18,724 nucleotides of DNA from a virus (Duplodnaviria > Heunggongvirae > Uroviricota > Caudoviricetes): the IMG/VR virus record IMGVR_UViG_2734482772_000011, positions 1 through 18,724 of that record; one strand, written 5' to 3'. Positions 1-16,884 of this stretch are shown here, piece after piece (the first letter of the stretch is position 1; the number at the start of each line of letters is the position of its first letter). Below the pieces are notes generated by a model. The model was given only the letters and a program-made list of their open reading frames with translations. It did no database searches and had not been told where the DNA came from. The position numbers and the translations under genes were made by a program.

Positions 1-351
1 TCACTTTAGCCGTTCACGGGCCGTCTTCGCCTTATGGCACGGCCAGCACAGGCTCTGCAGATTGCTGTCGGCATCTGTGCCGCCATGCGCTTTAGGAATG
101 ATGTGGTCAACGGTTTTCGCCTCACGCACCACACCGGCACGCAGACATAACTGACACAGGCCTTTGTCACGCTTGAGCACACGTTCACGGATAACATCCC
201 ATTTCGAACCATAACCGCGCTGGTGCCGGGACTGGCCTGGCTTGTATTGCTTCCAGCCTTCGCTTTTGTGGCTTTCACAATAGCCTGACGGATCTGTGGT
301 GGTATGGCGGCAACCGCGAACACGGCAGGCTTTTGGGATTCGTGGCGGCAT
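1..351 (-). CDS. HNH endonuclease (terminase-associated type)
   Basis: Track ORF 116 aa; Cys-rich N-terminus (CRVRGC...CESH) and HNH motif (DHIIPKAHGG...LCWPCH); stop TGA at 3-1; sits after the lysis cassette where HK97-like phages carry an HNH before cos/terminase. Confidence 0.8.
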   Translation of the reverse strand: MPPRIPKACRVRGCRHTTTDPSGYCESHKSEGWKQYKPGQSRHQRGYGSKWDVIRERVLKRDKGLCQLCLRAGVVREAKTVDHIIPKAHGGTDADSNLQSLCWPCHKAKTARERLK

Positions 352-762
352 ATGTACTAATCTCCGATTTATCCAAATTTCACTGCCATAATGCCGACAT
401 TCTCTGCCATTATTGGCTCCGTTTATCCGTTAAAAGGGATATCAGTTAAGTTATCCCGTGCAGGGTATAAGCCATTGTCGAGACCACTCATTGAATGGCC
501 TCTGCAATAACCGATGTCTTTCCATCAGTCCGCCACCACAAAGAATCTTTTTTGCCATAAGGCTGGAGGTTCATCTTTCAGTGGCTGCCAGTGTTATTTC
601 CCCACTTACTGGCTTGGGTTGTTTCGTGGTACTGCCGCAACTGGTGGTGCACAGACTTAGTTAAATCTGTTCTCGCCTGAACTATCTTTTACATACCCGG
701 ATTGTGGGGATGTAAATCACGGTTTCATTATCAAGCCCACCCGTAGATGGGCTTTGGAATGG

Positions 763-1281
763 TCACTTTGGCAGTCCGGGGATCGATATTTGCGCCTGCT
801 GCTCAAGCCTTTCGATTCTTGCTATGAGTTGAGGTTTTTTGATCCTGCCCCAGCGGTTCAGCAAGCGTCCTGACATACTGGCAACATCCTTTTCCTTCAT
901 GAACTCCAGCATTAACTCGTTGTGCTCTCTTTGGTATGAGTGAGCCATCTCCATCAGCCTGTCACGCATCCAATTAAATGCTTTGATAAACGCCTCTTTG
1001 ATGGCGGCAGCTTTTTTGCCGGTAAACGACATGATGATGTACATCGCACCGTCTTTGGAAATTTCATATTCAACATACTGATTACCCTTGTGTTCATAGG
1101 TAACCCGCGAAAAGTTGCTGGTTAGAAATTCATCCGAACAGTCTAGCTTTTCGATTTTCTGAATGATGTGGTGATGCTGCTTGTCGAAGTAAGCTGCTAC
1201 CTTGCGGGAGGTTGTGATCACGCGATCACCAGAAACAACCACCATGTCCCGGAAATCGAGATTAGCCAATTGATGATTCAT
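763..1281 (-). CDS. Rha-family phage regulatory protein (antirepressor-like)
   Basis: Track ORF; Rha-like N-terminal segment VVVSGDRVITTSRKVAAYFDKQHHHIIQKI; ATG at 1281-1279 preferred over the track GTG start at 1317. Confidence 0.65.
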   Translation of the reverse strand: MNHQLANLDFRDMVVVSGDRVITTSRKVAAYFDKQHHHIIQKIEKLDCSDEFLTSNFSRVTYEHKGNQYVEYEISKDGAMYIIMSFTGKKAAAIKEAFIKAFNWMRDRLMEMAHSYQREHNELMLEFMKEKDVASMSGRLLNRWGRIKKPQLIARIERLEQQAQISIPGLPK

Positions 1282-1430
1282 AGCGTCTTTACCTTTTAGA
1301 AAGTGAGCCTGTCTCACAGAAAAGCCGTCCCGAGATGGTCGCCACCATATACGGCAGTTCTCAGGCTCAACTTTCTGAAAGGCTCGGGTGATGTAATATG
1401 CGCGTGAGATGCGCTGTGAAATTCAGATGT

Positions 1431-1453
1431 AAAAAAGCCCCGCATCGCGAGGC
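1431..1453 (-). terminator. intrinsic terminator downstream of Rz
   Basis: On - strand: GCCUCGC-GAU-GCGGGGC hairpin (7 bp, one G-U pair) followed by UUUUUU. Confidence 0.55.
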
Positions 1454-1485
1454 TCATTAAATGGACTTTGTGATTTGCAAAAAAA

Positions 1486-1923
1486 TTATTTCAGGCACTG
1501 AGTCCTGATGTATTCCTGCAGGTAGTTAACCTGCGCGGTTATCCTATCGATTCCACTTCTGAGACGGTAATAATTGAGTTCAGCATCTGCTGTAAGTCTT
1601 GGGCTTTCTCCATCGCCCATGCTGCTGGCTCCGGTCGTTGGCTTTGCACAGGTGGCGGCGACTTGCAGGCGCTTACGACCAGCAGAAACATCAGCACGGA
1701 GGCTTTCGATAGTCGCGTTAGCATCAGCAAGCTCCTTTGTGTATCTGGCGTCGAGTTCTGCTACATCACGTTGACGCTTCTGCATATCAGCGATAATGGA
1801 TGTGGCTTTATCGCGCTGTTCTTTGTAGGCGATTGCATTATCACGGTAATGATTAACAGCCCATGACAGGCAGACGATGATGCAGATAATCAGAGCGGAG
1901 ATAATCGCGGTGACTCTGCTCAT
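1486..1923 (-). CDS. Rz: Rz i-spanin
   Basis: Track ORF 145 aa, near-identical N-terminus to lambda Rz ([30 protein letters not shown]) by recall; follows R with 4-bp overlap. Confidence 0.9.
1539..1730 (-). CDS. Rz1: Rz1 o-spanin lipoprotein, embedded in Rz in the +1 frame
   Basis: Track ORF inside Rz; signal peptide with lipobox (LLVVSAC), proline-rich stretch KSPPPVQ...AAWAM like lambda Rz1; exact start uncertain. Confidence 0.7.
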
Positions 1924-2396
1924 ACCTCAATCTCTCTGACCGTTCCGCCTGCTTCTTTGAATTTTGCAATCAGGCTGTCAGCCTTATGCTCGAACTGACC
2001 GTAACCAGCCCCCGGCAGTGAAGCCCAGATATTGCTGCAACGGTCGATTGCCTGACGGATATCACCGCGATCAATCATCGGTAAAGCGCTACGTTCCTTA
2101 ATCTGTTGCAGTGCCACAGCGTCCTGGCTTTTCGGAGAGAAGTCTTTCAGGCCAAGCTGCTTACGATAGGCATCCCACCAACGGGAAAGAAGCTGGTAAC
2201 GTCCGGCTGCTGTTGATTTGAGTTTGGGGTTTAGCGTGACAAGTTTGCGAGGGTGATCGGAGTAATCAGTGAATAGCTCTCCGCCAACAATGACGTCATA
2301 ACCATGATTTCTGGTTTTCTGACGTCCGTTATCAGTCCCCTCTGACCACGCCAGCATATCGAGGAACGCCTTACGTTGATTATTGATTTCCACCAT
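1920..2396 (-). CDS. R: endolysin R (lytic transglycosylase)
   Basis: Track ORF 158 aa, [42 protein letters not shown]... matches lambda R almost residue for residue by recall. Confidence 0.95.
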
Positions 2397-2703
2397 CTTC
2401 TACTCCGGCTTTTTTAGCAGCGAAGCGTTTGATAAGCGAACCAATCGAGTCAGTGCCGATGTAGCCGATGAACACGCTCGTTATATAAGCGAGATTACTA
2501 CTTAGTCCGGCGAAGTCGAGAAGGTCACGAATGAACCAGGCGATAATGGCGCACATCGTTGCGTCGATTACTGTTTTTGTAAACGCACCGCCATTATATC
2601 TGCCGCGAAGGTACGCCATTGCAAACGCAAGGATTGCCCCGATGCCTTGTTCCTTTGCCGCGAGAATGGCGGCTAACAGGTCATGTTTTTCTGGCATCTT
2701 CAT
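2380..2703 (-). CDS. S: holin S (S107/S105 dual-start type)
   Basis: Track ORF 107 aa, [35 protein letters not shown]... matches lambda S by recall, including the Met-Lys-Met dual start. Confidence 0.95.
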
Positions 2704-2820
2704 GTCTTACCCCCAATAAGGGGATTTGCTCTATTTAATTAGTAATAAGGTCGATTACTGATAGAACAAATCCAGGCTACTGTGTTTAGTAATCAGATTT
2801 GTTCGTGACCGATATGCACG

Positions 2821-2858
2821 GGCAAAACGGCAGGAGGTTGTTAGCGCGACCTCCTGCC
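2821..2858 (-). terminator. strong hairpin between tRNA-Thr and S (tR-prime-like terminator or processing structure)
   Basis: Perfect 10-bp stem GGCAGGAGGT/ACCTCCTGCC with 10-nt loop at 2829-2858; on - strand followed by GUUUUGCC (short U tract). Confidence 0.4.
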
Positions 2859-2945
2859 ACCCGCTTTCACGAAGATCATGTGTAGAAGGCCGCAGCGTAA
2901 CTATCACTGATGAATTCAGGATAGCCAGTGGCTACGGCTCAGTTA

Positions 2946-3021
2946 TGGTGCTGGTTAACGGACTTGAACCGCTACCCATTCGCTTACAAGGCGACTGCTC
3001 TACCATTGGAGCTAAACCAGC
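2946..3021 (-). tRNA. tRNA-Thr (anticodon UGU), CCA encoded
   Basis: Hand-folded: acceptor GCTGGTT/AACCAGC (7 perfect bp), D-stem GCTC/GAGC, anticodon loop CTTGTAA, T-arm AGCGG-TTCAAGT-CCGTT, discriminator A, 3' CCA; 76 nt. Confidence 0.7.
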
Positions 3022-3026
3022 ATGTT

Positions 3027-3101
3027 TGGCGGGACAGCGTGGGCTCGAACCACGATAAGAAGGTTAACAGCCTTCCGTAATGACCTTTATACGACTGACC
3101 C
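3027..3101 (-). tRNA. tRNA-Asn-like (anticodon GUU), CCA encoded; slightly atypical
   Basis: Hand-folded: T-arm CGTGG-TTCGAGC-CCACG, anticodon stem GAAGG/CCTTC with loop CTGTTAA (same loop as E. coli tRNA-Asn by recall), acceptor GGGTCAG/CTGTCCC with one T:T mismatch, short D-stem; 75 nt. Confidence 0.55.
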
Positions 3102-3192
3102 AAATAAAAAAAGCCACCGTTGCAACTTAAGAGTCACTAACGGCATCTTATGCCAATAGTGTTGCTCATTTGCTCAATGATGTCAACACGTT
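3102..3192 (-). promoter_or_regulatory. late promoter region (pR-prime-like) downstream of Q
   Basis: Consensus -35 hexamer TTGACA on - strand (plus coords 3186-3181) right after the Q stop; no convincing -10 resolved by eye; position matches lambda pR-prime/qut. Confidence 0.3.
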
Positions 3193-3681
3193 CTATGCTA
3201 CATGTTTAATTTTCTCTACACGTTTCCGATTTTTAAACGCACTATCCAGAACCGGGTAAATCATAAACAACGAGGCATTAAGGATTTCGTCAACTTCCCG
3301 TCGACAGGTTGCGAGCGACGGTTTTTGAATGCGCCCGCCGCCACGGCATAACATCTTGCGAGGTCTTGCGACGCGATGATAGTAAGATGCAATGGCGTGC
3401 TTGGAAGAGCCATGAGCGTAGTAGCTGAGGAGGATTCCAAAGGCTTTCTTGTCAATGTACATGACGGAATCGACGACCTGAGAAATCAACATTCCATCAT
3501 CATCATTACACATTGGCCTTGTCATAACTCTTCCCGGCTCTACGCTCTCCATGAACTTCGCTATTACGCTGCTCATGCGCTTTTCCAGACGACCTGAATA
3601 AACCCATGCGCCCCACAGTTCAAGCCAGCCATTCAGCCACTCATGCTGTTCTTTGGTGAGGTTTAGTTCTCTTATGCCCAC
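3193..3681 (-). CDS. Q: late-gene antiterminator Q
   Basis: Track ORF 162 aa; Q-family hallmarks (LELWGAWV near N-terminus, Cys/Asp-rich central segment, SYYAHG); located between nin region and S. Confidence 0.8.
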
Positions 3682-4343
3682 GCGCCTTCTCCCTGTACCT
3701 GAATCAATGTGAGATTTCCGCAGAACACTGCCCCAGTATCGATATACATCTGGTTGGCAAATTTGAGTGGTTTCACTGCTGGCGTATGACCAAAGATAAA
3801 CGTGTCCGCGCCTTTAATTTCTTTAACGATCCCGTCTTGTGAGTTGCTGATTCGTTCGCGGTTCCAGATTACCTGCTGATGATCAACTGGCTTTCCAAAT
3901 TCGTATTCGTCACAAGGATAATCGGCGTGGCAGATGACATATTTTTTACCTTTGCTCACCAGTTCGATGATTAACGGAAGTTCTTCTGCTTTATGGGCAA
4001 GAGCTTTAGCCAGAATTTCTTTGTCGTAATCGAGATTAAAGAACCAGACACCGCCATTAAGCAGCCAGTGATTGACGTTTCCACGCTCTGATAAGCCATC
4101 AATCATCATGTGCTCATGGTTTCCACGTACAGCTCTGAACCAGGGGAATGTGATTAATTCCAGGCATTCAACGTTCTCTGCACCACGATCAACCAAATCG
4201 CCCACCGAGATAAGCAGGTCTTTTTTGTTGTCGAATCCAATCGTATCCAGTTTGTTCATCAGGTTCGTGTAGCATCCGTGCAGATCGCCAACTACCCAAA
4301 TATTTCGGTATTTGCTGCCATCAATTCTTTCGTAGATATTCAT
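3672..4343 (-). CDS. ninI: Ser/Thr protein phosphatase (lambda NinI/Orf221 type)
   Basis: Track ORF 223 aa; metallophosphatase motifs GDLHG, GDLVDRG, GNHE; position after ninG as in lambda. Confidence 0.9.
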
Positions 4344-4951
4344 GCAGCCTCACTTCTGCTGTTTCGCAGTTTTTTAAGTTTCTGTTGATACTCCGCCTTG
4401 ATGGCCCTGCACTCTTCGACAGTCCAGCGATGGCGGTTATGGTTTGATTCGATTTCGTCTACTGCTTCCTGCCCGATGCGGTTAATCAGTTCGACGCGAT
4501 ACGGAACGAGATTTCCGCTTTTATGTTGGTTGCACACCACGCATTGCTTGTGAATATTGCGTTCATCAAATCGGAGTTGAGGCGCCGCAGCAGTTGTCCG
4601 GTAATGCCCGGCATCCCACTGAGCAGACGTGAGCGTTCCGCACGAGATACATGGTAAGTCGCGGTCTCTTTCTCTGATGAAGGCGTTTACGGCTTGTTGG
4701 GCTTGTTTAATCCAGTAACTGCGGGGCTTTAAGGCGAGTTTTCGAATCTTAAGTTTATCTTTCTGTTTCTGCTCCTCTCGTCGTCGTTTCTTCTCTGCTG
4801 CCTTTTCCGCTTTTTCGCGTTCTTTGCTTCGTCGTTCGAGTGCTATCTTGGTTCCACACTCTGGAGAGCACCACCACTGATTGGCGAATGCAGGGTGAAA
4901 CCATTCCCGACATTCATCGTTTTTACATCGTCTTCGCGCTGGTTTAGCCAT
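4340..4951 (-). CDS. ninG: NinG (Rap) recombination protein
   Basis: Track ORF 203 aa; Cys-rich N-terminus ([12 protein letters not shown]...WWCSPECG) and lysine/glutamate-rich stretch typical of lambda NinG by recall. Confidence 0.9.
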
Positions 4952-5004
4952 CGTCTTCTTCCTCGTGCATCGAGCTATTCGGATCGCTCATCAGTTCTGC
5001 ACAG

Positions 5005-5511
5005 TTATGGTCTGCCATGGTTTTCATGAAAACCCAGTTCTTTTTCTGCCCTCTTCCTTTCTGCAATAGCGTCAATGATGCTAGCAAATATTCCAAGATA
5101 TTTGGTGCGCCCATCTACGCATATATTCGCAATCCACTTGCATCTCTCTTTATTGAAATACACTCCAGTCACTCCTGACGAATTGGTTATTTTTCTCTTT
5201 TGGTTCTGTGCATTCTGTTGGTGTGTAACCAATCGAAGATTAGATAGCCTATTATCTGACCTTACTCCATTTATATGATCAATTTTATACCCTAATGGAA
5301 TCTCACCATTATTTATCATCCATATAACGTGGTGAGCATAAGTAATTACACCATCGATAGTTAACATCCTATAACCATCACTCCTAATGTAACCAGCAAC
5401 ACTGCCAACCTTAACATTATTAGAAGGAGACACTTTCCATCTAAGTACACCTAAAACATCATCATATGATAATTTATTTCTTAATTCGTCTATGTTGCTT
5501 ATATTTCTCAT
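5005..5511 (-). CDS. HNH homing endonuclease with AP2-like DNA-binding domain
   Basis: Track ORF 168 aa; HNH_3-like segment (YKIDHINGVRSDNRLSNLRLVTHQQN) followed by AP2-like segment (SGVTGVYFNKERCKWIANICVDGRTKYLGIF); AT-rich by eye relative to flanking nin genes. Confidence 0.8.
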   Translation of the reverse strand: MRNISNIDELRNKLSYDDVLGVLRWKVSPSNNVKVGSVAGYIRSDGYRMLTIDGVITYAHHVIWMINNGEIPLGYKIDHINGVRSDNRLSNLRLVTHQQNAQNQKRKITNSSGVTGVYFNKERCKWIANICVDGRTKYLGIFASIIDAIAERKRAEKELGFHENHGRP

Positions 5512-5653
5512 TATGTTCCACCATATTTAAGCATTCATATATACAACGCTCACACACATGAACTTCCAGCACATGCAGCTTCTGACCGCAGTTAGCGCAC
5601 GTTAAAGCTCGCTCGACACTTCCTTGTTCGTAACTTCGATTTTGGTCAATCAC
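5474..5653 (-). CDS. ninF: NinF-like ORF with altered C-terminus (remnant at the junction with the HNH insert)
   Basis: Hand-translated, not in track: GTG at 5653-5651 overlaps ninE stop (GTGA); reads [59 protein letters not shown]; core [24 protein letters not shown] matches lambda NinF by recall; 3' end overlaps the HNH start by 38 nt. Confidence 0.45.
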
Positions 5654-5832
5654 CTTGTTTTCCTCGCACGTTCTCTAAGCCACCGGATATCCCACAGGTG
5701 AGCCGTGTAGTTGAAGGTTTTTACGTCAGATTCTTTTGGGATTGGCTTGCGTTTATTTCTGGAGCGTTTCGTTGGAAGGTATTTGCAGTTTTCGCAGATT
5801 ATGTCGGTGATACTTCGTCGCTGTCTCGCCAC
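5650..5832 (-). CDS. ninE: NinE
   Basis: Track ORF 60 aa, [23 protein letters not shown]... matches lambda NinE by recall. Confidence 0.9.
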
Positions 5833-5972
5833 ACGTCCTCCTTTTCCTGCGGTAGTGGTAACACCCCTGTTGGTGTTCTTTCACATCGGAGACACCATCG
5901 ATTCCAGTAAGGTTGATTTGGTCGGAAGCGGTTATCTTCTTTGCATTCACCGCACCGATAACATCGCATCAT
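5799..5972 (-). CDS. ninD: NinD (small Cys-rich protein)
   Basis: Within track ORF 5799..6032; start taken at [11 protein letters not shown] (ATG 5972-5970) which overlaps ninB stop as ATGA; Cys-x2-Cys pairs. Confidence 0.7.
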
Positions 5973-6409
5973 GCTGCCCGATCTCCCCATCTCGCTTTCC
6001 ACTCCAGAGCCAGTCGCGCTTCGTCTGACCACTTAACGCCACGCTCTGTACCGAATGCCTGTATAAGCTCTAATAGCTCCGCAAATTCGCTTACACGCAT
6101 CCTGCTGGTTGACTGGCCTATTACCACAAAGCCATTCCCGGCAAGGTTAGGAACAACGTCCTGCTGCTTTAATGCTGCGGTAAACACACACTTCCAGCTT
6201 TCTGCATCCAGCCAGCGACCATGCCATTCAACCTGACGAGAGACGTCACCAAGGCAAGCCCAAAGCTTTCGGTTTTGGTCTAAGCTGCGGTTGCGTTCCT
6301 GAATGGTTACTACGATTGGTTTGGTTGGGTCTGGAAGAATTTGCTGTACTGCGTGAATAGCGTTTTGCTGATGTGCTGGAGATCGAATTTCAAAGGTTAG
6401 TTTTTTCAT
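5969..6409 (-). CDS. ninB: NinB (Orf-family recombination mediator)
   Basis: Track ORF; start taken at [21 protein letters not shown] (ATG 6409-6407) with SD GAGGGA 5 nt upstream; matches lambda NinB by recall. Confidence 0.9.
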
Positions 6410-6422
6410 GACTTCCCTCTCC

Positions 6423-6457
6423 CCCAAATAAAAAGGCCTGCGATTACCAGCAGGCCT
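6423..6457 (-). terminator. intrinsic terminator between helicase and ninB (tR2 analog)
   Basis: 8-bp perfect stem AGGCCTGC/GCAGGCCT at 6434-6457, followed on the - strand by UUUUUAUUU. Confidence 0.6.
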
Positions 6458-6485
6458 GTTATTAGCTCAGTGATGTAGATGGTCA

Positions 6486-7922
6486 TCAGAATCCTCCTTT
6501 CTTCTTGGACTGCGGTTCCTCGCGTTCACGTCGGCGCATTTCAGCAGACTGTTGGTCTGTGTCATAAATAGCGCCATTTGCCTGAATGCAATACACCGTG
6601 CCGGTATTGCCATGACGATTGAGACGAAGGATTAGTTCAGTTTCACCAGGTGGAACACTGTCATCAAAAGCGCCTTCACGATGGATCCCGACCCAATAAT
6701 CGCAATCCTGTTCAATCTGCCCTGTATCTCGTGAGTCACTTGGTAATGGGCGTTTATTGGTTCTGCTTTCCAGTGCGCGGTTAAGCTGCGTCAGAAGCAC
6801 AACAACGCAATCAAGCTCTTTGGCAAGGTTCTTCAGTCCTTTGGTGATCATGCCGTAAGCAAGGTCGTTGCGATCGGCCTTCTCAGCGGTCATTAGTGTC
6901 AGGTAATCGACCAGAATCATGCCAACACATCCTTTTTCTCGCTTGATTCGACGGCTTTCGCTGACGATTTGAGCCAGAGATAATCCCGGCGTGTCGTCGA
7001 TGTAAAGCAGGTCTATTTCACTCAAGCGATTGGCTGTTTCTATCGCCCTGTTGAAGTCACCATCGTAATCACCCTGATAGCCGTCATCGGCGTCATTTGT
7101 CGCCGGAAGGTAAAAAATATTCGGGTTAACACCAGACTTCTGCCCTACCAGTTTTTCCAGTATCTGATCACCTGGCATTTCAAGGCTGAACATCAATGCG
7201 GGCTTTTTCTCATGCACTGCGCAATTGATTGCCATCTGGCTGTATAGCGTCGTTTTCCCCATCTTAGGGCGAGCGCCAATGACAAACAGAGAGCCTTTCA
7301 CCAGACCTTTCGGTGACAGCATCCTGTCCAGCGATGGGATCCCTGTGCTCATTCCCCGTTGTTCGCCTGACGGGTCAAATCGCTTCTCAAGGTCGCTAAC
7401 CCAGTCTTCCATGACCTCACCAAATGAGCGAAGGCCGCGACGCGATCCGGTTTTTGCATGGTCTGTCAGTTGCGTGAAAATCGACTGAATAGCTTCGTAC
7501 TTCTGCGTTGCAGTCATTCCGTTGCGGGAATAGAGCAATTCCGTCGCTTCAGTCATGCGGTTGATGGCGTAGCGTTCCATTGCGGTTTCGCGAACCTGCA
7601 TTGCATAAGCAACGATGTTTGCTGCGCTTGGCGTGTTCTTTGCGATCTCAGCGATATAAGCAAAACCGCCAACAGACGCCGTTAACGATTTACGCTCCAG
7701 TTCATCGAAAAGCGTCAGGCCATCTACTGGCTTTTGCTCACGGTGCATTCTGGTTATTTCTTCGAAAATGATTTTGTGTGGCCGGCTGTAAAATGAATCA
7801 GGCTTCAGCATCGCCAGAACCTTCTGGACGCGCTCACTGCTGTCATCATCCAGAAGCAATCCACCAATCACCGCCTGCTCTGCCTCGATGCTATGGGGCG
7901 GCGCATAAAAATTATCGGTCAT
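6486..7922 (-). CDS. replicative DNA helicase (DnaB family, P22 gene 12 type)
   Basis: Track ORF; Walker A GARPKMGKT, DnaB-like N-terminal segment SIEAEQAVIGGLLLD; ATG at 7922-7920 with SD GAGGGTG preferred over track GTG at 7937. Confidence 0.9.
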   Translation of the reverse strand: MTDNFYAPPHSIEAEQAVIGGLLLDDDSSERVQKVLAMLKPDSFYSRPHKIIFEEITRMHREQKPVDGLTLFDELERKSLTASVGGFAYIAEIAKNTPSAANIVAYAMQVRETAMERYAINRMTEATELLYSRNGMTATQKYEAIQSIFTQLTDHAKTGSRRGLRSFGEVMEDWVSDLEKRFDPSGEQRGMSTGIPSLDRMLSPKGLVKGSLFVIGARPKMGKTTLYSQMAINCAVHEKKPALMFSLEMPGDQILEKLVGQKSGVNPNIFYLPATNDADDGYQGDYDGDFNRAIETANRLSEIDLLYIDDTPGLSLAQIVSESRRIKREKGCVGMILVDYLTLMTAEKADRNDLAYGMITKGLKNLAKELDCVVVLLTQLNRALESRTNKRPLPSDSRDTGQIEQDCDYWVGIHREGAFDDSVPPGETELILRLNRHGNTGTVYCIQANGAIYDTDQQSAEMRRREREEPQSKKKGGF

Positions 7923-8811
7923 CGTGTTCACCCTCACGAACTTTCAGGTAGGTATTATCGTTAAGCAGGAAATCAAATCCCTTTTTGTGCCAGACAGTTC
8001 CGCGTTGATGGTTTGGACGCTCTTCGAACATCCATCGGCAATTTTCGCCTACGTAGCTCAAATAATTTCTCCAGTCCTGCATCGTGAACCCATGCCCGTC
8101 AAGCTGGCGGGTTATCACTCCGGCTTTGCGCCAGAACGTTCGGATCTGGTTTTTACGCTTGTCATTCAGTGCGCGGATTCTTGGAGCTTCAGGAAGGATT
8201 TCGTGGTAAGCATCGACAACATCCTGACAGCTGACGGAAGGTTTTTTCTTGTCAGACTTTTTGTCTGCTGTGGCACTCTCTAATACGTCAGTATTAGAGA
8301 TAATATTATTATATTCTTTATCTGTGGTAATTTGCTGGTAATCTGCTGGTACAGCATTGCTTACAGGCATTGGTATTGCTGGCTTTGAGGTGGTAATTTG
8401 CTGGTAATCTGCTGGTACAAAATTTGACTGATAATCGTCATATTTCTCTACTGAGAAAACTGAGAATTTACCGTGTGAAACCCAGTCAATCATGCCGAGT
8501 TTTTTGAACTTTCTAAGCAGGTACTGAACGCGATCTGGTTTGAGTCCTGTTTCAAACGCCAGAGAGTTTCTACCGCCAAGTAGCTTCCCTCTGCCTACCA
8601 GAATTTCTCCTGCGTCAGTCATTACATACTCAGGCGTATGCTTTGCTTTGAGGATTAAGTGAACCCACAGATGCGCTGCTTCTGCATCCTTGTAAAACGG
8701 CACATCCATAATTTTACGGTGCAGCAAGGCATACCCCTTACCGCTGCTTTGATGCGGTTGTTGTAGCCTTCTGGCCTCTCTGGCTTCGGCTAGATTAGAT
8801 ATGTTACTCAT
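7912..8811 (-). CDS. replication initiation protein (O-like)
   Basis: Track ORF 299 aa directly upstream of the helicase, downstream of cII; contains tandem peptide repeat [10 protein letters not shown] encoded by the iteron array, as in lambda O. Confidence 0.75.
8324..8419. repeat. origin-like iteron array inside the O-like gene, flanked by an AT-rich tract (8281-8320)
   Basis: Exact 30-bp direct repeat GTGGTAATTTGCTGGTAATCTGCTGGTACA at 8324-8353 and 8390-8419; each holds two TGCTGGTA sub-repeats 11 bp apart. Confidence 0.6.
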
Positions 8812-8950
8812 GACCTTTCTCCTTCTGCATCAGCTTCACTTTTTCCAACTCAGCCCGGAATCGACCAGGCTGCTTGAAGCTGGACAGGAAGCGATCACGT
8901 AGTATGTGTTTGTGAATTTTGTCCTGGTAAGGACTGAGTTGTTTTGTCAT
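8804..8950 (-). CDS. small hypothetical protein (48 aa) between cII and O
   Basis: Hand-translated, not in track: [48 protein letters not shown]; SD AGGAG 5 nt upstream of ATG 8950-8948; stop overlaps O start. Confidence 0.4.
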
Positions 8951-8982
8951 AATTACTCCTGTGGATTGATCCAGTAATTCCC

Positions 8983-9279
8983 TCAGAATTGCATATCAAT
9001 TTGCTTAGAGTCCCCGGCGGCCACCGGGGATTTTTTCTTTGTGATTCCATCAAGCGCATACTTAAAAGCCCTACTAATCGGACTGATGTCTGATGCCATT
9101 CCGAAAGCACACAAGACTGAAGCAATAAATCTCCAGTCCGTTCTGCTTATCTTCGATTCATGACAGCCAATCATCTTTGCCAGACCGCGCTGAGTAAGCG
9201 TTGACAGGTTGATAAGTAAATCTGTTTCTGCGCGATCAACGTCGCGCTGTGATAGTTTGCTGTAACTTGTTCGTTCCAT
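8983..9279 (-). CDS. cII: CII-like transcriptional activator
   Basis: Track ORF 98 aa; HTH region and C-terminus [18 protein letters not shown] resembling lambda CII (KKRPAATERSEQIQMEF) by recall; position between cro and O. Confidence 0.75.
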
Positions 9280-9364
9280 TTCTTAAGATTTCCAATAGTG
9301 AATAGCTAGTTGAAAGGTATGCGTGGAAACGCATATGGCCTTAGTTGGTCAAATATCTTGGAAC

Positions 9365-9410
9365 TCGCTTTTCAGCGACGTAGGACGAATGTCCGTTGTT
9401 ACAAAGAGCG
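9365..9410 (-). promoter_or_regulatory. nutR (boxA + boxB)
   Basis: On - strand: boxA CGCUCUUUGUAACAA (9410-9396), then boxB hairpin UCGCU-GAAA-AGCGA (9378-9365); same architecture as the nutL candidate. Confidence 0.55.
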
Positions 9411-9420
9411 GCTCCGCTTA

Positions 9421-9636
9421 TTAAGCGGCTTTGTGTTCCGGCGGGAACACGTCATCAAGACTTACTTTTGCGCCTAACTTATTTAGGCACGCAACAAGAG
9501 CACGGCATGTTTTAAGGTCTGGGAAGCGACGACCAGATTCCCAATGTCCGATAGCTCCCTGTGTGCATCCAACTGCCTTAGCAAGTGTTGTTTGAGAGAT
9601 ATTCAGTGACTCTCGATATTTTCGTAGGTTGCTCAT
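9421..9636 (-). CDS. cro: Cro-like repressor (HTH_XRE)
   Basis: Track ORF; start at MSNLRKYRESL (ATG 9636-9634) with SD GGAGG 5 nt upstream; HTH ISQTTLAKAVGCTQGAIGHWESG; divergent from cI. Confidence 0.75.
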   Translation of the reverse strand: MSNLRKYRESLNISQTTLAKAVGCTQGAIGHWESGRRFPDLKTCRALVACLNKLGAKVSLDDVFPPEHKAA

Positions 9637-9752
9637 ATGCCCTCCATAGTAACCTCGAATAAAAAATACAATATGTACTTTCCAAATACAAGCAAAAATA
9701 CACATTGTGCATGGATGGTTCCAGTACAGAGCGTAATAATAAGGACATGAAA
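9637..9752. promoter_or_regulatory. OR region (divergent PR/PRM with operator sites)
   Basis: Intergenic between divergent cro and cI; near-palindromic sites TACAATATGTAC (9667-9678) and TACACATTGTGC (9699-9710); the first recurs near pL. Confidence 0.6.
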
Positions 9753-10406
9753 ATGAAATGGTATGAACTGGCTAGATCCAGAATGAAAGAGCTCGGCATA
9801 ACTCAAGAGAAGTTAGCCGAAGAGCTAGGTATGACGCAGGGTGGGATTGGACACTGGTTGCGCGGATCTCGTCATCCATCTCTTAGTGATATTGGTGTGG
9901 TGTTTAAATACCTTGGTATTGATAACATATCATTCAACCACGACGGGACATTTTCACCTGTTGGCGAATACTCATCGGCCCCAGTTAAAAAACAATATGA
10001 GTACCCTGTATTTTCTCATGTTCAGGCTGGGATGTTCTCTCCAGAACTCAGAACCTTTACCAAAGGCGATGCGGAGAGATTGGTAAGCACAACCAAAAAA
10101 GCCAGTGACTCTGCATTCTGGCTTGAGGTTGAAGGTAACTCAATGACCGCACCAACAGGTTCCAAACCCAGTTTTCCTGACGGGATGTTAATTCTGGTTG
10201 ACCCTGAGCAAGCTGTTGAGCCCGGCGATTTCTGCATAGCCAGACTTGGTGGTGATGAATTTACCTTCAAGAAACTGATCAGGGATAGCGGTCAGGTGTT
10301 TTTACAACCACTAAACCCACAGTACCCAATGATCCCATGCAATGAGAGTTGTTCCGTTGTGGGGAAAGTTATCGCCAGCCAGTGGCCTGAAGAGACGTTT
10401 GGGTGA
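9753..10406 (+). CDS. cI: CI repressor (HTH + LexA/S24-like autopeptidase)
   Basis: Track ORF; start at ATG 9753 (SD AAGGA 7 nt upstream); N-terminal HTH ([20 protein letters not shown]), C-terminal S24 motifs (GNSM ... FKKL). Confidence 0.9.
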
Positions 10407-10472
10407 TATATGTGAAATGCATATATTGATATAAATGCAGCAATATCAAATAGTTAAAAGGTTATATTTTTA

Positions 10473-10853
10473 ATGAATGATCTTGATAAGAAAAAGTACG
10501 ACCAAGTTATTGATTCTGTGAACTTCGCCCTTAGATCGTTGTCAGAGTTATTCGAAGCCCATGGAATGCATGGGATGTATGATCTAACGAATCCAAGCCT
10601 TGATGAGCTAAAATTAGTGTTTACAAGGATGAAAAACGGTGTTGACTCTATTGCTCAAAGCTTTGAGCACATGGTAGAGACAGCAAAGGATATGGATGCC
10701 GCAAGTGCAAGCATAAATGTTATGAACATCAAACAAGGATTGATGTATGCTGAATCACTATTGCTTGCTGTAGAGAAATTAGACTATGATAAATGTGTGG
10801 AAGCAAATACGCAGATAAAAACCCACGATCTTCCACCAACCCAATGGCCTTAA
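10473..10853 (+). CDS. hypothetical protein, AT-rich accessory gene in the rexA position
   Basis: Track ORF 126 aa co-oriented with and downstream of cI; A/T-rich codons by eye; acidic, no obvious TM segment; no family recognised. Confidence 0.6.
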   Translation: MNDLDKKKYDQVIDSVNFALRSLSELFEAHGMHGMYDLTNPSLDELKLVFTRMKNGVDSIAQSFEHMVETAKDMDAASASINVMNIKQGLMYAESLLLAVEKLDYDKCVEANTQIKTHDLPPTQWP

Positions 10854-10921
10854 TAGTAAATCAAGATTTCATATAGTCTATTTGAACTAGGCTAGTACCA
10901 TAAAATAAACCGAGGAAACGC

Positions 10922-11023
10922 AATGAAAACCATGTCTACTCTGCACAAAGATGCAATGACCCTGAGATCTCTCATTAACGAGATTCTGGCTCGCTCGTCA
11001 GCACACACCAAAAAAGCCGCATA
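10922..11023 (+). CDS. small peptide ORF (33 aa)
   Basis: Hand-translated: MKTMSTLHKDAMTLRSLINEILARSSAHTKKAA; SD GAGG 7 nt upstream; followed 11 nt later by an intrinsic terminator. Confidence 0.35.
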
Positions 11024-11034
11024 ATGCCTACATA

Positions 11035-11060
11035 ACCCGGCCTCAGCGCCGGGTTTTCTT
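11035..11060 (+). terminator. intrinsic terminator ending the cI operon (tImm analog)
   Basis: CCCGGC-CTCAGC-GCCGGG hairpin followed by TTTTCTTT. Confidence 0.7.
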
Positions 11061-11245
11061 TGCCTCACCCCCCACCTAAAGACACATAACCAAATGTATT
11101 TATTGAAAAATAAATAGATACAACTCACTAAACCACGCAATTCTGATCTCTCCTTACATCGCCGAGGCGATACACCCACGCTAAAAAACAACACTATTAA
11201 ATACAAAGTGTTATAAAAAATCACCCCATTTTAGAACAAATCGTA

Positions 11246-11274
11246 TTGACCCAATAAAGTACATATCGTACTAT
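11246..11274 (+). promoter_or_regulatory. pL-like promoter with overlapping operator
   Basis: -35 TTGACC (11246-11251), 17-nt spacer, -10 TACTAT (11269-11274); revcomp of 11259-11270 is TACGATATGTAC, 11/12 identical to OR site 9667-9678. Confidence 0.5.
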
Positions 11275-11319
11275 TTAACCGTCAGCAGGACGCTGGAAGC
11301 CAAACGGAACAGACTGGCA

Positions 11320-11366
11320 GGCTCTTTAAACAACGTCGAACTCTCGACTACGTGGCTGAAAAGCCA
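11320..11366 (+). promoter_or_regulatory. nutL (boxA + boxB)
   Basis: boxA GGCTCTTTAAACAA (11320-11333) then boxB hairpin TGGCT-GAAA-AGCCA (11353-11366), about 100 nt upstream of the N start. Confidence 0.6.
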
Positions 11367-11464
11367 GATCACCCAACCACATGAGCTGTGGGATGCAATG
11401 CCGAAGCAACCGTCTCAGGAGGAGCTTCGAGATTGCATCACCAAAGTTTATTCGGGAGGAATCT

Positions 11465-11787
11465 ATGTCCAGAAAAACAGAATTTAAAGGCACCTCAGCT
11501 TCTCGTCGTAGAGCTCGTCGCGCAAACCTGCAAAGTCAGGAGGCGATTAGCTCCGACAAGCTACACAGACCAACCCCCTCTCGAGTGGTCTTGCAATGCA
11601 AGCGCAAACCAGCAATGAGAGCAGAAGTAATAACACTGACAACGTTGACCAGAAAATATGAAGGCTCAACTTGTCTTCCAAATGTAGCTCTTTACGCGGC
11701 AGGCTACAGGAAATCAAAACAACTGACAGCAAGGTGACTTGTGTTGGTCGCCAGAAAATAAAATTAGGCAGCAAACCACTTATTTGA
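11465..11787 (+). pseudogene. N: N-like antiterminator interrupted by an apparent 1-bp deletion (or sequencing error)
   Basis: ATG 11465 (SD GGAGG) opens frame with arginine-rich motif TSASRRRARRANLQ and stops at TGA 11735-11737; the conserved N C-terminus VTCVGRQKIKLGSKPLI is in the -1 frame, ending at 11787; adding one A to the A4 run at 11716-11719 fuses them into a 107-aa protein. Confidence 0.6.
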
Positions 11788-11795
11788 GGTGATAT

Positions 11796-12245
11796 ATGGA
11801 AGAACAAGCAAACAAGATTCTCGTAGAACTATTGCAAAAAGCCAGTAATGGAATAGACGCGGCTGTTTCATTTAGCCAGGCACAGATTCCTGATGTTATC
11901 CATCAGTTGCTGCTATGGAATATGGTTGACAGTCTGATTAAAACATTAATAGCCATTCTAACAATCCCACTGGTTTTCTGGTTTATGAAGAAGCAGTGCC
12001 AAAGAGTTGAGATAGGTAAAATCGGTAATGAAGGATATTCATGGGAGAAGGGAAATCCCAAATACAGGCCGACAATGGTTTGGGATAGCAAAGGTGATAT
12101 TGATCTTCTTATCATGCCATTGGTTGGAGTTTTGACTCTGTGGGGGATTTTTATTATTGGTGCAGTAACCAATATGACTTGGTTAAAAATTTGGCTGGCC
12201 CCAAAGCTTTACCTTATCGAATATGCAGCATCATTGGTTAAGTAA
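11796..12245 (+). CDS. hypothetical two-TM membrane protein (sieB-position accessory gene)
   Basis: Track ORF 149 aa; SD GAGGTG upstream; two hydrophobic segments (LIKTLIAILTIPLVFWFM and LLIMPLVGVLTLWGIFIIGAV); AT-rich by eye; between N and tL1-like terminator. Confidence 0.6.
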   Translation: MEEQANKILVELLQKASNGIDAAVSFSQAQIPDVIHQLLLWNMVDSLIKTLIAILTIPLVFWFMKKQCQRVEIGKIGNEGYSWEKGNPKYRPTMVWDSKGDIDLLIMPLVGVLTLWGIFIIGAVTNMTWLKIWLAPKLYLIEYAASLVK

Positions 12246-12248
12246 TTT

Positions 12249-12274
12249 CAGGCCGCATAGTCGGCCTTTATTTT
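12249..12274 (+). terminator. intrinsic terminator (tL1 analog)
   Basis: AGGCCG-CATAGT-CGGCCT hairpin followed by TTATTTTT. Confidence 0.7.
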
Positions 12275-12394
12275 TGGCATAAACAACAGAATAAACACTG
12301 CACTGTGTATTCATTCCAACGAGTGAATACACGGAGCAATGTCGCTCGTAACTAAACAGGAGCCGACTTGTTCTGATTATTGGAAATCTTCTTT

Positions 12395-12418
12395 GCCCTC
12401 CAGTGTGAGGGCTTTTTT
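12395..12418 (+). terminator. intrinsic terminator (tL2 analog)
   Basis: GCCCTC-CAGTGT-GAGGGC hairpin followed by TTTTTT. Confidence 0.75.
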
Positions 12419-12484
12419 ATATGCATACCAATAACGCTTCACTCGAGGCGTTTTCGTTATGCAATCAAATATAAGGAGTTACCC

Positions 12485-12619
12485 ATGATGCACTTTCAGC
12501 TCGCGGGTAGCGGCGTCATGTCCGCTTTCTACCCGCACGAATCTGAATTATCACGCCGAGTTAAACAATTAATCAGAGCAGCAAAGAAACAACTGGAGGC
12601 GTTATGCGCAATGAAATAG
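12485..12619 (+). CDS. cIII: CIII-like protein (FtsH inhibitor)
   Basis: In-frame part of track ORF 12380..12619 downstream of the terminator; ATG 12485 with SD AAGGAG 6 nt upstream; AGSGVMSAFYPHESELSRRVKQLIRAAKKQL resembles the lambda CIII helix region by recall. Confidence 0.55.
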   Translation: MMHFQLAGSGVMSAFYPHESELSRRVKQLIRAAKKQLEALCAMK

Positions 12620-12756
12620 CCATTAATCACCAGATGCTTCGTGCTGCACAGAACAAAGCAGTAATAGCCCGATTTATTGGTGATTCAAAAATGTGGCTTG
12701 AAGCAAATAAAGCGATGAAATCAGCTATCAACCTTCCGTGGTATCGCAGGAAATGA
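12604..12756 (+). CDS. Kil-like small protein
   Basis: Hand-translated 50 aa: MRNEIAINHQMLRAAQNKAVIARFIGDSKMWLEANKAMKSAINLPWYRRK; start overlaps cIII end; FIGD.KM motif and position recall lambda Kil (low certainty). Confidence 0.4.
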   Translation: MRNEIAINHQMLRAAQNKAVIARFIGDSKMWLEANKAMKSAINLPWYRRK

Positions 12757-12837
12757 GTTTTACAGATAACTGGTCAGACGAAGAATTCATTCGTCAGATG
12801 AAAGAAATGCTCAATCAGCACAAAGAACAGGAGAAAG

Positions 12838-13149
12838 ATGATGATTCTGACTCTGAATGATAAGCGTGAAATATCGCAAATAATCGCAAGTTTTACTGAT
12901 GAAGATTACGAACGAATCAACAGTGAAGTTGATCGCCTCTGCAAACGTTGCGACCCAATAAGCGAAATGCTTCGCTCATATAAACCAGATGAACACACTA
13001 AGGACGCTATCGACTGGCTGGAAGATGATGACTGTAACTATCAGGAAAAAGCCGCTGAATGGTTCTGGGATGCAATAACCGAAAGAGTTAAGGCTGAATA
13101 TGCCTTCGCAATATTCAAACGCAGACACATTTTTGGAGAAGCTGCATGA
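12838..13149 (+). CDS. hypothetical protein upstream of recombinase
   Basis: Track ORF 103 aa, acidic, ends 4 bp into the RecT start; no family recognised. Confidence 0.5.
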   Translation: MMILTLNDKREISQIIASFTDEDYERINSEVDRLCKRCDPISEMLRSYKPDEHTKDAIDWLEDDDCNYQEKAAEWFWDAITERVKAEYAFAIFKRRHIFGEAA

Positions 13150-14057
13150 GCAATATCGTTGAATTCGTTAAACAGCAGGAGCAGTTATTCTGCGGAGCAT
13201 TGACTGAACAGACGGTGACATGGGCTAAGGAAAGCCAGTTTGCAATTCAGTATTTCCAGAAAAACGATTACCTGGCTAAAACAGCACTGGCAAATCCAAC
13301 CAGCGCACAGAACGCCATCATCAATGTTGCGGCGATCGGCATCACCTTAAACCCGGCCAGCAAACTGGCTTATCTGGTTCCGCGCGACGGCATGGTGTGC
13401 CTTGATATCAGTTATATGGGATTGCTCCATATTGCAATGGAGTCTGGTGTTATCTCATGGGGTCAGGCAAAACTTGTTCATGCTAACGATACCTATGAGT
13501 CAAACGGGCTTGATAAAGCACCAACCCATAAATACAACGCCTTCGGTGATCGTGGTGATATCGTTGGCGTTTACTGCACAGTTAAGACGCCAGCAGGTGA
13601 TTATCTAACGGAAGAGATGAGTCTGGCTGAAATTGAGGCTGTAAGGAAAACAAGCAAGGCGGCCTTCAGCGATAAAGGACCATGGGTAAATCACTGGAAT
13701 GAGATGGCGCGAAAGACGGTCGTAAAGCGTGCAAGCAAGTATTGGCCTAAGGCATCACGTCTTGATAGTGCTATTCACGTACTAAACGAAGAAGAAGGTG
13801 TGTGGACTGAACCAGTTATGCCGCACAAATCAGAGGAAGATATCCGCGAAGATGAACGGAAACGCCAGCAGGAAATAACGGATAAAGCACAACTTCTTTG
13901 TGATGAAATGGCTCAGGCAGAAAACATGGATGATTTGAAGCGATATTTTGCAGAAGCATATCGCCTGACATCTGGAATGAAATTGCAGCAGAACGTACAA
14001 GCCATTTACGCAGAATGCAAAGCGAAACTGGAGGTTGCCAGTGAGCAAACTGTATGA
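13146..14057 (+). CDS. recT: RecT-family single-strand annealing recombinase
   Basis: Track ORF 303 aa; segment KGPWVNHWNEMARKTVVKRASKYWP resembles the RecT core (GPWVTHWEEMAKKTAIRR) by recall. Confidence 0.8.
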   Translation: MSNIVEFVKQQEQLFCGALTEQTVTWAKESQFAIQYFQKNDYLAKTALANPTSAQNAIINVAAIGITLNPASKLAYLVPRDGMVCLDISYMGLLHIAMESGVISWGQAKLVHANDTYESNGLDKAPTHKYNAFGDRGDIVGVYCTVKTPAGDYLTEEMSLAEIEAVRKTSKAAFSDKGPWVNHWNEMARKTVVKRASKYWPKASRLDSAIHVLNEEEGVWTEPVMPHKSEEDIREDERKRQQEITDKAQLLCDEMAQAENMDDLKRYFAEAYRLTSGMKLQQNVQAIYAECKAKLEVASEQTV

Positions 14058-14523
14058 AATTGCCAATGAATACGCAAAGCTGATGGATTCAGATTTAGAA
14101 CCAGAGATGATTGCTGACACAATAGAAGGCATGGAAGGAGAATTTACCGATAAAATAGAGCAACTTCTTGCCATTATTAAAAATGAATCTGGTTATGCTG
14201 AATGCCTCAAGGAAGAGGCAAAGTCACTAAATGAACGAGCCGCAGTAATTCAAAATAAGATTGACAACATTATGGCGTATATAGCGTCATCGCTTGAAAT
14301 GGTTGGCAAGAAAAAGATTCGAGCAGGTATTCACCAGGTAACAATCCGCAAACCGTCAGAAACTGTAGAAATCATCGACTCAAGCGCCATTCCTCCTGAA
14401 TACGTTGAGTTTGAAACGACAATTAAAGCCGACAAGTTGGCAATCAAACACCAACTAAAAGCAGGAATAAATATCCCCGGCGCTCAACTCAAAGTTGGGA
14501 AACCTTCACTTCTTATCAAATAA
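14041..14523 (+). CDS. Gp157-family protein (Siphovirus Gp157-like)
   Basis: Track ORF; GTG 14041 with SD GGAGG 6 nt upstream preferred over track TTG 14035; family call from recalled pattern and recombinase adjacency, not verified. Confidence 0.5.
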   Translation: MSKLYEIANEYAKLMDSDLEPEMIADTIEGMEGEFTDKIEQLLAIIKNESGYAECLKEEAKSLNERAAVIQNKIDNIMAYIASSLEMVGKKKIRAGIHQVTIRKPSETVEIIDSSAIPPEYVEFETTIKADKLAIKHQLKAGINIPGAQLKVGKPSLLIK

Positions 14524-14534
14524 CGGTATCGCCT

Positions 14535-14849
14535 ATGAAAAAGACTCCATGGGAGAAATGGGAAGTCGATTTCTTACGCGAAGTAGCGGCGACAATGCCA
14601 GTTGAAGTTATCGCTGAAAAACTGGAAAGGACTGAAAAAGCAGTAATGGCGAAAGCAACAAGGATTGGCGCTGACATTGTTAGCCGACTTCGTGGAAGAC
14701 GATGGACAAGAGCCGAAGTATCACTTTTCGGTAAGTTCTCCGCAGAAGAAATAGCAATTGCAACCTGCCGCTCAATTTATTCAGTAAGAGCTATGCGATA
14801 CAAGCTAAAAAAACTCGATGAAGAAAGAGCAGGCATACGAATAAATTAA
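14535..14849 (+). CDS. hypothetical protein with internal tandem helical repeat
   Basis: Track ORF 104 aa; two ~35-aa repeats each starting with W and acidic residues (WEKWEVDFLREVAATMP... and WTRAEVSLFGKFSAEEIA...). Confidence 0.5.
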   Translation: MKKTPWEKWEVDFLREVAATMPVEVIAEKLERTEKAVMAKATRIGADIVSRLRGRRWTRAEVSLFGKFSAEEIAIATCRSIYSVRAMRYKLKKLDEERAGIRIN

Positions 14850-14865
14850 CATGGAGTAATTAACA

Positions 14866-16211: not shown

Positions 16212-16212
16212 T

Positions 16213-16734: not shown

Positions 16735-16884
16735 TGCCGCCAGTTAAAGTTGTGATTATCACTTTGGTGATGATAGTGATTGCGAGAATCATGTCTGGTG
16801 AAGTTTGGTGGATATGGTAATGGCTAAGGCAGCAGCAGAGCGCAACTAACAATCCTCGCACTCGCGGGGATTTCTTTTATCTGA

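Follow-up and report, generated by a model that had tools for sequence, protein, structure and literature searches.

The DNA considered here, referred to throughout as the window, is an 18,724-nt stretch of a Caudoviricetes genome (IMGVR_UViG_2734482772_000011), and all coordinates are window positions (1 to 18,724). The region between the lysis genes and the HNH endonuclease gene near the left end of the window (1455-352, minus strand) is probably an accessory-gene slot in the late operon of a lambda-like prophage with HK97-type packaging. The sole intact cargo gene of this slot is rha (763-1281, minus strand, 172 aa), which is followed by a spacer of 411 bp (762-352, minus strand) without any credible gene. 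The initial annotation of this stretch had described a Rha-like gene, an apparently non-coding interval, and a single hairpin; beyond this, the spacer is a widely conserved mosaic module that includes a cargo site in its empty state as well as another copy of the hairpin noticed at that time.

The organization of the slot was derived from an alignment set of 191 loci, taken from annotated phage records and two IMG/VR pattern scans, in which the minus-strand sequence resolves into the blocks A (768-713), B (712-646), C (645-492), D (491-422), and E (421-352). The architectures observed in these loci are A-B-C-D, A-C-D, A joined straight to D, as in Shiga toxin (Stx) phages, and D alone, as in mEp460 and Ayreon. 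In 88 loci, block C is joined directly to block D, the state present in the window, and in 42 loci a cargo of 129-1315 nt is placed between positions 132-148 of block C (mostly 133) and positions 2-3 of block D, corresponding to window 513 and 489; the window is, therefore, the empty form of a cargo (moron) site. The cargo is inserted at one defined point, and in the cargo-bearing loci the sequence equivalent to window 512-490 gives way to the cargo genes together with the cargo's own hairpin copy. Block C (492-645, minus strand), the conserved non-coding segment upstream of the cargo site, is represented by 73 distinct copies with few polymorphisms, and block D, which apart from its overlap with the hairpin occupies 422-471 (minus strand) and is likewise non-coding, is the most widely shared segment, being carried by P22-like, HK97-like, Stx, mEp460, and Ayreon phages. 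Block B, which after the first hairpin covers 646-724 (minus strand), occurs in only some relatives (APC_JM3.2, JEP4, HK620, and ET5), and its fold is not significant (z=-1.9).

The cargo genes found at the insertion point lie on the forward strand and encode a protein of the Gp49/Sf6-gp66 family (118-126 aa, Pfam PF13876) or a DUF551 protein; open reading frames (ORFs) of 23, 62, and 80 codons have also been found, and one locus carries a trypsin-like peptidase with a 59-aa partner. This last locus (IMG/VR contig 2588253749_000007, 9178-10492) holds the largest cargo at the same point, 1315 nt, and its peptidase, of 246 aa (Pfam Trypsin_2), has as best PADLOC match the protease part of RT-Protease_XI (E=3e-15), so that a prophage defence cargo is possible. 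An exact 25-nt block D pattern used to scan genome contigs returned 10 loci only and added little diversity. Five contigs with an exact match to this pattern (L193, L194, L195, L200, and L201) come from metagenome bins labelled Cellvibrionaceae, Nanosynbacter, Bacillota, and Collinsella; several of them also contain high-scoring hairpin copies, and they are probably misbinned enterobacterial phage DNA.

The distribution of the spacer is very broad. Parts of it are present, mostly at 90-99% identity, in 206 phage records. Of 5426 complete E. coli genomes, 2546 also carry parts, with as many as five occurrences in a single genome. The mosaic blocks show 93-98% identity to P22-like (HK620, Sf101, and P22) and HK97-like (HK022, mEp234, and HK140) phages, and short pieces only are found in Stx phages, mEp460, and Ayreon. 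Among relatives, the gene on the upstream side of the spacer module differs, with rha being replaced by KilA-N together with hkbL, by a GIY-YIG nuclease gene, or by others, and so does the gene downstream, which may be HNH, DUF2560/orf80, or others. Clustering of the flanks gave 11 upstream and 8 downstream ORF clusters, some of them possibly spurious; the blocks thus persist beside at least 11 upstream ORF clusters, with this same reservation, and about 4-5 real downstream gene families. These locus comparisons, together with the published description of the P22 site (PMC3573128), agree with the original proposal that the interval between Rz and terminase is a variable accessory locus. In this sense the locus is routine, since sequenced phages carry both rha and the spacer at 97-98% identity and the existence of a cargo site had been recognized earlier in P22.

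The spacer 762-352 is non-coding. Its longest ORF on the plus strand has 68 aa and that on the minus strand 35 aa, a PHROG search with seven small spacer ORFs matched no family, NCBI annotates no gene in the homologous stretch of E. coli ET5 and RM9088, and HK022 and mEp234 have none there. The absence of a convincing ORF between 352 and 762 is in this way supported by protein families and by independent annotation, and no conserved protein that might have been overlooked was found in the spacer. An apparent read-through in phage 2851, where the upstream stop codon is in frame with the sequence beyond the hairpin, was discarded, since it is a consequence of the shared block and, in the window, the frame is soon closed.

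Cassette ends are marked by a family of boundary hairpins. After the stop codon of each cargo gene comes an element of 38-42 nt, CCATYACAAAAGCC...GGCTTTGAYAATGG, whose types have in common a 6-bp lower stem (CCATTA with TAATGG), a 2x2 internal loop that is invariant (CA opposite GA), and a 10-bp upper stem of variable sequence. A covariance model, R1, was built from 20 copies, and within the 18.7-kb window it recovered exactly two, the next best match scoring 10.9 bits. Copy 1 (725-762, minus strand, CCATTCCAAAGCCCATCTACGGGTGGGCTTGATAATGA; 58.7 bits) begins at the base after the rha stop codon and folds with -18.4 kcal/mol (z=-4.2). It corresponds to the AGCCCA...TGGGCT hairpin of the initial annotation, which is real, with its core at 734-753 and not at 734-755. 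Copy 2 (472-510, minus strand, TTATTGCAGAGGCCATTCAATGAGTGGTCTCGACAATGG; 54.7 bits) is located at the empty cargo site and differs from copy 1 in its stem; its central part (508-462) folds with -17.6 kcal/mol (z=-3.5) and the whole 39-nt element with -18.9 kcal/mol.

In 200 related loci (1.78 Mb) the R1 model identified about 290 copies, 1-3 per locus, with three being occasional and including weaker matches. The copies score best on a single strand per site, the matches on the opposite strand being low-scoring echoes of near-palindromic copies. A separate pattern scan gave 288 elements, of which 141 begin within 30 nt past the stop codon of an ORF with 30 codons or more, including 83 at distance 0; another 26 follow a terminator tail, and most of the others are the empty-site copy. 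In mEp460-type phages, the boundary hairpin comes directly after the Rz terminator. Four divergent copies outside the training set were also captured, one in L028, two in L138, and one in L166, and when they are added, 96.2% of the cells are standard pairs and 11 of the 16 pairs have changed on both sides. None of 500 shuffles equalled the observed value on any of five measures, and sliding the partner columns lowered pairing to 32-51%. Pairing is kept through at least seven different stem sequences, and this conservation, together with the compensation in 11 of 16 pairs, makes neutral DNA unlikely as an explanation for the hairpin. The elements are rich in G-U pairs, and in 15 of the 20 copies folding is better for the late strand than for its complement (-18.4 versus -12.7 kcal/mol for copy 1, and -18.9 versus -10.2 kcal/mol for copy 2). 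The hairpin is, on these data, a real structured element marking cassette ends. It has no match in Rfam 15, and literature searches with its sequence returned unrelated primers only.

Several individual loci illustrate the variability of the element. The divergent copy in L028 (5006-5043; 32 bits, stem GCGTC/GGCGC) comes after the stop codon of an ORF of 89 codons situated between Q and the holin gene, so the hairpin is not confined to the slot between Rz and terminase. A mEp460-type prophage (L138, 1857-1235, minus strand) contains three hairpins in series with three different stems; the two divergent ones are downstream of block D, the middle one upstream of a small accessory gene and the last one after this gene and its terminator, and the series looks like a short cassette array. 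A chimeric hairpin is present in L110 (8243-8284), with the 5' arm of the cargo type, the 3' arm of the empty-site type, and two mismatches at the stem base, and L020 has a half-element at the junction of two cargo genes; both cases show that crossovers fall in or at the hairpin, the chimera being direct evidence of one inside it.

Taken together, these data suggest a structural and evolutionary account of the slot that is likely to be correct in its outline. The minimal backbone, as seen in mEp460-type phages, would consist of Rz, its terminator, a boundary hairpin, block D, and the packaging genes. Compared with this backbone, the window would have acquired two inserts: the intact rha cassette, between the terminator and hairpin 1, and a non-coding cassette formed by blocks B and C, between hairpins 1 and 2. 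The 411-bp spacer would then represent an empty cargo position plus a conserved linker, ending in a recombination scar. The long blocks C and D may supply the homology through which phage or host recombination swaps whatever sits between them.

The role of the hairpins is a separate question, for which their function can be proposed from their structure and placement. They would fold in the Q-antiterminated late transcript, and the Q-modified RNA polymerase would read through them. Their most plausible use may be as mRNA 3'-end barriers against 3' exonucleases or as processing sites between cistrons, similar to repetitive extragenic palindromic (REP) elements or to the RNase III sites of T7, a specific RNA role that is put forward tentatively and with somewhat less than even confidence. 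It is rather unlikely, although the conserved CCATTA/TAATGG outer boxes, the CA/GA loop, and the covarying stems would fit it, that the hairpin is a specific recognition element defining a system of accessory-gene cassettes in the late operons of lambdoid phages, either as a dedicated RNA-processing or protein-binding site governing how each cargo gene is expressed, or as a single-stranded DNA hairpin for cassette capture in the manner of attC or of REP and its associated tyrosine transposase (RAYT).

Several observations weigh against parts of this interpretation. The blocks are 93-98% identical everywhere, and such conservation may mean recent spread rather than selection. Block C is nearly devoid of covariation signal and its fold is unremarkable (z=-1.75), and among the 73 distinct C-D sequences, examined with a single-sequence fold, polymorphisms avoid the paired positions only weakly (p=0.07 for the sense strand, p=1.0 for the antisense strand), so that the evidence for structure in block C is weak at most. 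No promoter was found by matching to the consensus, and in this respect rha falls short of a moron in the strict sense. Hairpin 1 and part of block D are missing from P22, where an insertion in orf25 is also tolerated, which means that none of these parts is essential in the laboratory. With regard to the hairpins themselves, the strong hairpin directly after the rha stop codon lacks a U tract, the stem of copy 1 being followed by UUGAUAAUG and that of copy 2 by GACAAUGG, and both window copies are, for this reason, a poor fit to a standard terminator. Their helix of 16 bp with a 2x2 internal loop (a 6-bp lower stem, the loop, and a 10-bp upper stem) is near but under the usual length of an RNase III site, about two helix turns, and thus short for a classical one. 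The invariant CA/GA internal loop hints at a specific partner, and the small RNA described from the homologous segment of P22, P22G, could be a stable fragment of the late mRNA.

The segment formed by block C and hairpin 2 (about 645-472) has also been considered as the gene of a trans-acting small RNA, cut from the late transcript and acting on host or phage mRNAs, in which case the non-coding cassette would be the cargo itself. P22G is a 204-nt late-strand RNA of P22 which is among the ten loci taking 99.8% of the P22 small-RNA reads (PMC13397905), and its nt 60-204 align to window 637-495 with 139 of 145 identities (96%). This shows that a stable RNA species arises from the homologous segment in P22, and it lends partial support to the small RNA originally suggested for 352-762, although the promoter suggested along with it was not found; the function of such an RNA does not follow from its existence. 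The flanking of the segment by two hairpins, as in the protein cassettes, and the avoidance of predicted paired positions by polymorphisms on the sense strand only would also agree with a small RNA. Nevertheless, the segment has no promoter of its own in the consensus scan, no U-tailed terminator, and no Rfam match, block C alone folds unremarkably, and P22G begins within the coding sequence of rha and stops in a hairpin arm, which resembles a degradation or read-assembly product. Of the putative small non-coding RNAs of that study, only two are reported as validated (PMC13397905). This explanation is regarded as improbable. A small protein gene within the spacer is far less probable still, and in fact hardly credible. 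The candidates are a 22-codon ORF similar to orf25 (491-423), a 35-codon ORF (558-451), and a 68-codon ORF on the opposite strand (458-664), and in their favor it can be said that P22 records annotate orf25 and that the 22-codon ORF has a GAGG 7 nt upstream of its ATG. This ATG is, however, CAG in all cargo-bearing variants, the frame of the ORF differs in Stx-type phages, and the 10-bp hairpin stem encloses both its ribosome-binding site and its start codon. A single T-to-A change abolishes the 28- and 35-codon ORFs of block C in 5 of 73 variants, and the 68-codon ORF of the plus strand runs across the cargo point and is interrupted in 42 loci. Natural variants and the lack of any PHROG match among the candidates led to the rejection of all these small ORFs.

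Alternatively, the hairpins may be Rho-independent terminators of the ordinary kind, insulating the individual cargo genes in keeping with the classical moron model, with the remaining spacer being neutral filler. Their G+C-rich stems (-16 to -22 kcal/mol) right after stop codons, the annotation of one copy as a terminator in phage Ayreon, and the presence of UUUGAUAAU after the type-2 copies are consistent with such a function, but the conserved 3' flank is GAUAAUG, without a U run, copy 1 having only UU after the stem and copy 2 none, and a terminator scan flagged neither window copy. Moreover, several cassettes already have a canonical terminator just upstream of the hairpin, which would render a second one redundant, and the conserved lower stem and internal loop are not needed by a terminator, so that this possibility is considered poor. 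It is also doubtful, if a little less so, that blocks and hairpins are functionless hitch-hiking DNA, recently spread with the neighbouring modules, and that the cargo site reflects tolerated illegitimate insertions. The identity, uniformly above 90% and without distant homologues, the near absence of covariation in block C, and the dispensability of the region in P22 (PMC10883804), which exists without parts of it, would fit this scenario. Against it stand the pairing kept across at least seven stems with 11 of 16 pairs compensated, the persistence of the same blocks beside many unrelated flanking genes, and the variety of cargo at one nucleotide-level position, each bringing a hairpin. On balance, a slot in which cargo is exchanged at a defined point between conserved blocks and each cassette ends in a structured hairpin appears to account for these data best.

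Folding of the spacer as a whole gave z=-4.6 for the late strand and -1.8 for the other strand. The possibility of a long structured RNA across the spacer was nevertheless dropped, as blocks B, C, D, and E folded piecewise have z between -1.0 and -2.1 and the signal is placed in the two hairpins. An RNAalifold-based polymorphism test (3 of 104 paired versus 22 of 113 unpaired columns variable) was set aside because its structure is biased to conserved columns. At the Rfam 15 gathering score only two transfer RNAs (tRNAs) were detected in the window and none of its families in the spacer; at E<=10 the best spacer match was Proteo-phage-1 at 583-646 (minus strand, block C), with 17.4 bits versus the 42 required and E=3.2, and this sub-threshold match was taken as chance.

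The right-hand end of the spacer appears to be a recombination scar joining a P22-type segment to the HNH module (369-421, minus strand), as judged from direct comparison with HK022, mEp234, and P22-like loci, in which a P22-type start is fused to unrelated sequence. The scar retains the ribosome-binding site (GGAG, 420-417) and the three first codons, ATG GCA GAG (410-402), of P22-type DUF2560/orf80; the P22-like homology ends at window 401, and the unrelated sequence beyond it leaves a 13-codon remnant ORF. The upstream region of the HNH module (352-400, minus strand) contains the HNH ribosome-binding site (GGAG, 365-362) and has no marked fold (z=-1.0), and block E is confined to the 10 loci of the 191-locus map that have the same HNH gene. 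This gene (1-351, minus strand; Pfam HNH PF01844, E=2.3e-16) encodes an HNH endonuclease of the HK97 gp74 type and opens the packaging module; the edge of the window falls at its stop codon, which forms the first triplet. In ET5 and RM9088 the genes downstream of the same HNH gene encode a small terminase of the P27 family and a large terminase. The HK97 HNH protein gp74 works with terminase at cos and has a role in cos cleavage (PMC9410871). The genome end of mEp234 and HK140 lies about 390 bp past HNH, on the downstream side. In agreement with the lack of a lambda-type cos already noticed for this stretch, no cos was found in 352-1453, which is as expected because the genome end of HK97-type relatives is downstream of HNH; the cos of this phage would be expected downstream of HNH as well, outside the window.

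Upstream of the slot, the lysis genes follow the usual late orientation, since the left-end genes of the window all lie on the minus strand, the direction of late transcription: holin (2703-2380), endolysin (2396-1920), and Rz (1923-1486; Pfam Phage_lysis, E=1.5e-36), all minus strand. A 63-codon ORF out of frame within Rz (1539-1730, minus strand), with the lipoprotein-like signal LLVVSAC, is probably Rz1, the outer-membrane spanin. The accessory region is bounded upstream by an intrinsic terminator directly 3' of Rz (1455-1435, minus strand), with a 9-bp stem including 6 G-C pairs, followed by TTTTTT (-14.1 kcal/mol, z=-4.0), and then the untranslated leader of the Rha cassette (1282-1434, minus strand), which is co-conserved with rha in P22-like phages. 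The placement of rha after the Rz terminator and before the HNH gene (351-1), as first described, is in this way confirmed, and so is its identity. Rha covers positions 1-90 of the 91 of the Pfam profile Phage_pRha (PF09669), with 83.9 bits and a curated cut-off of 29.9, and positions 1-54 of the 54 of ORF11CD3, and it matches PHROG 518, "Rha-like transcriptional regulator", with E=5.5e-80. As both domain profiles are covered end to end, the protein is complete and not a fragment of a larger one, and the annotations of phages APC_JM3.2 and JEP4 and of E. coli ET5 include the same rha gene of 519 nt (172-aa product).

Weaker PHROG matches of Rha correspond to families labelled anti-repressor, with which it has domains in common. 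These common domains are the one basis here for a possible regulatory role, and the association of Rha with antirepressors made at the outset extends as far as they do. The rha gene of phi80 was named for its phenotype, the inhibition of phage growth in hosts without integration host factor (IHF). In some relatives (L014 and alike), the rha frame is open upstream through the Rz terminator and gives an apparent 243-codon ORF, which is probably an ORF-extension artefact; in the window, a stop codon ends that upstream extension. Rha, like any cargo, would be expressed as a late gene. No sigma-70-like promoter was found on either strand of window 1-1600 by a consensus scan, which weak promoters could escape, and promoter candidates picked by eye were discarded because of wrong spacing. 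The late operon has another accessory slot, between the Q antiterminator gene and the holin gene, where two tRNA genes are placed, tRNA-Thr (tgt) and tRNA-Asn (gtt), at 2946-3021 and 3027-3101 (minus strand). The Chi site GCTGGTGG is absent from the window, the one-mismatch sequence ACTGGTGG being found alone at about 632-639.

These results have some practical consequences. A hairpin family absent from Rfam flags cassette ends in about half of E. coli genomes, the map gives annotators a reason to leave the 411 bp without gene calls, and window 513/489 is the exact point to inspect for cargo, including possible defence genes, in related prophages. Should the hairpin prove to control mRNA processing or cassette exchange, this would help to account for the trade in accessory genes among lambdoid phages without disturbance of late-gene expression.

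The closest known system is the orf25-pid-orf80 moron site of P22, which has the same genomic position and homologous flanks, P22 being 93% identical to window 637-452. The pid gene of P22 has been described as a moron, with relatives that lack the insert (PS34) or have a different one (Cenens et al. 2013, PMC3573128), and the same site was also treated by Wolput et al. 2022 (PMC8835761). In P22, pid is on the opposite strand and has its own promoter and terminator, unlike the window, which carries no cargo there, and it enters at about window 452, some 37 nt downstream of the main cargo point seen here; furthermore, the window is joined to the HNH/HK97-type packaging module, and P22 to orf80 and gene 3. 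An orf25::CamR insertion was used by the Casjens laboratory as a marker in viable P22, which indicates that block D is dispensable in that phage (PMC10883804). More generally, the slot resembles classical morons in having extra genes between genes that are adjacent in relatives, with a stem-loop at each 3' end. Morons, as reportedly defined by Juhala et al. and Hendrix et al. in 2000, are flanked by a promoter and a terminator, and the cargo of the slot differs from them in being mostly on the late strand, in having no promoter detected by the consensus scan, and in a 3' stem-loop without the terminator U tract.

The hairpin itself shares characteristics with several repeated structures. The REP elements of enterobacteria, or bacterial interspersed mosaic elements (BIME), are repeated imperfect palindromes of about 40 nt after stop codons in operons, which stabilise the upstream mRNA, and the hairpins are also palindromes of about 40 nt after stop codons within operons, with structure kept more than sequence; they have, however, no similarity to the REP consensus, are confined to the accessory slots of phage late operons, and are not associated with a RAYT-type transposase. 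In common with integron attC sites they have an imperfect palindrome closing each cassette on its 3' side, outer boxes that are conserved around a variable centre, and a strand bias. Their junctions differ in lying within long homology blocks, which fits homologous over site-specific recombination, and no integron-type tyrosine recombinase (integrase) is annotated beside the slot in any record examined, for which reason the hairpin is not classified as attC. The RNase III sites of T7 early mRNA are irregular intercistronic hairpins in which an internal loop separates an upper from a lower stem, and their cleavage leaves a protective 3' hairpin. The boundary hairpins have the same irregular arrangement between cistrons of a long phage transcript, with a shorter helix (16 bp plus the 2x2 loop) and no sequence similarity. 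Finally, short conserved boundary sequences at module borders, seven in number, were reportedly described by Clark et al. in 2001 for the HK620 genome and proposed as recombination foci. The likeness to these lambdoid boundary sequences lies in the conservation of sequences at module borders, and HK620 carries this very spacer; the covarying structure with its conserved flanks and internal loop, a modest new detail, was worked out here and not taken from that study.

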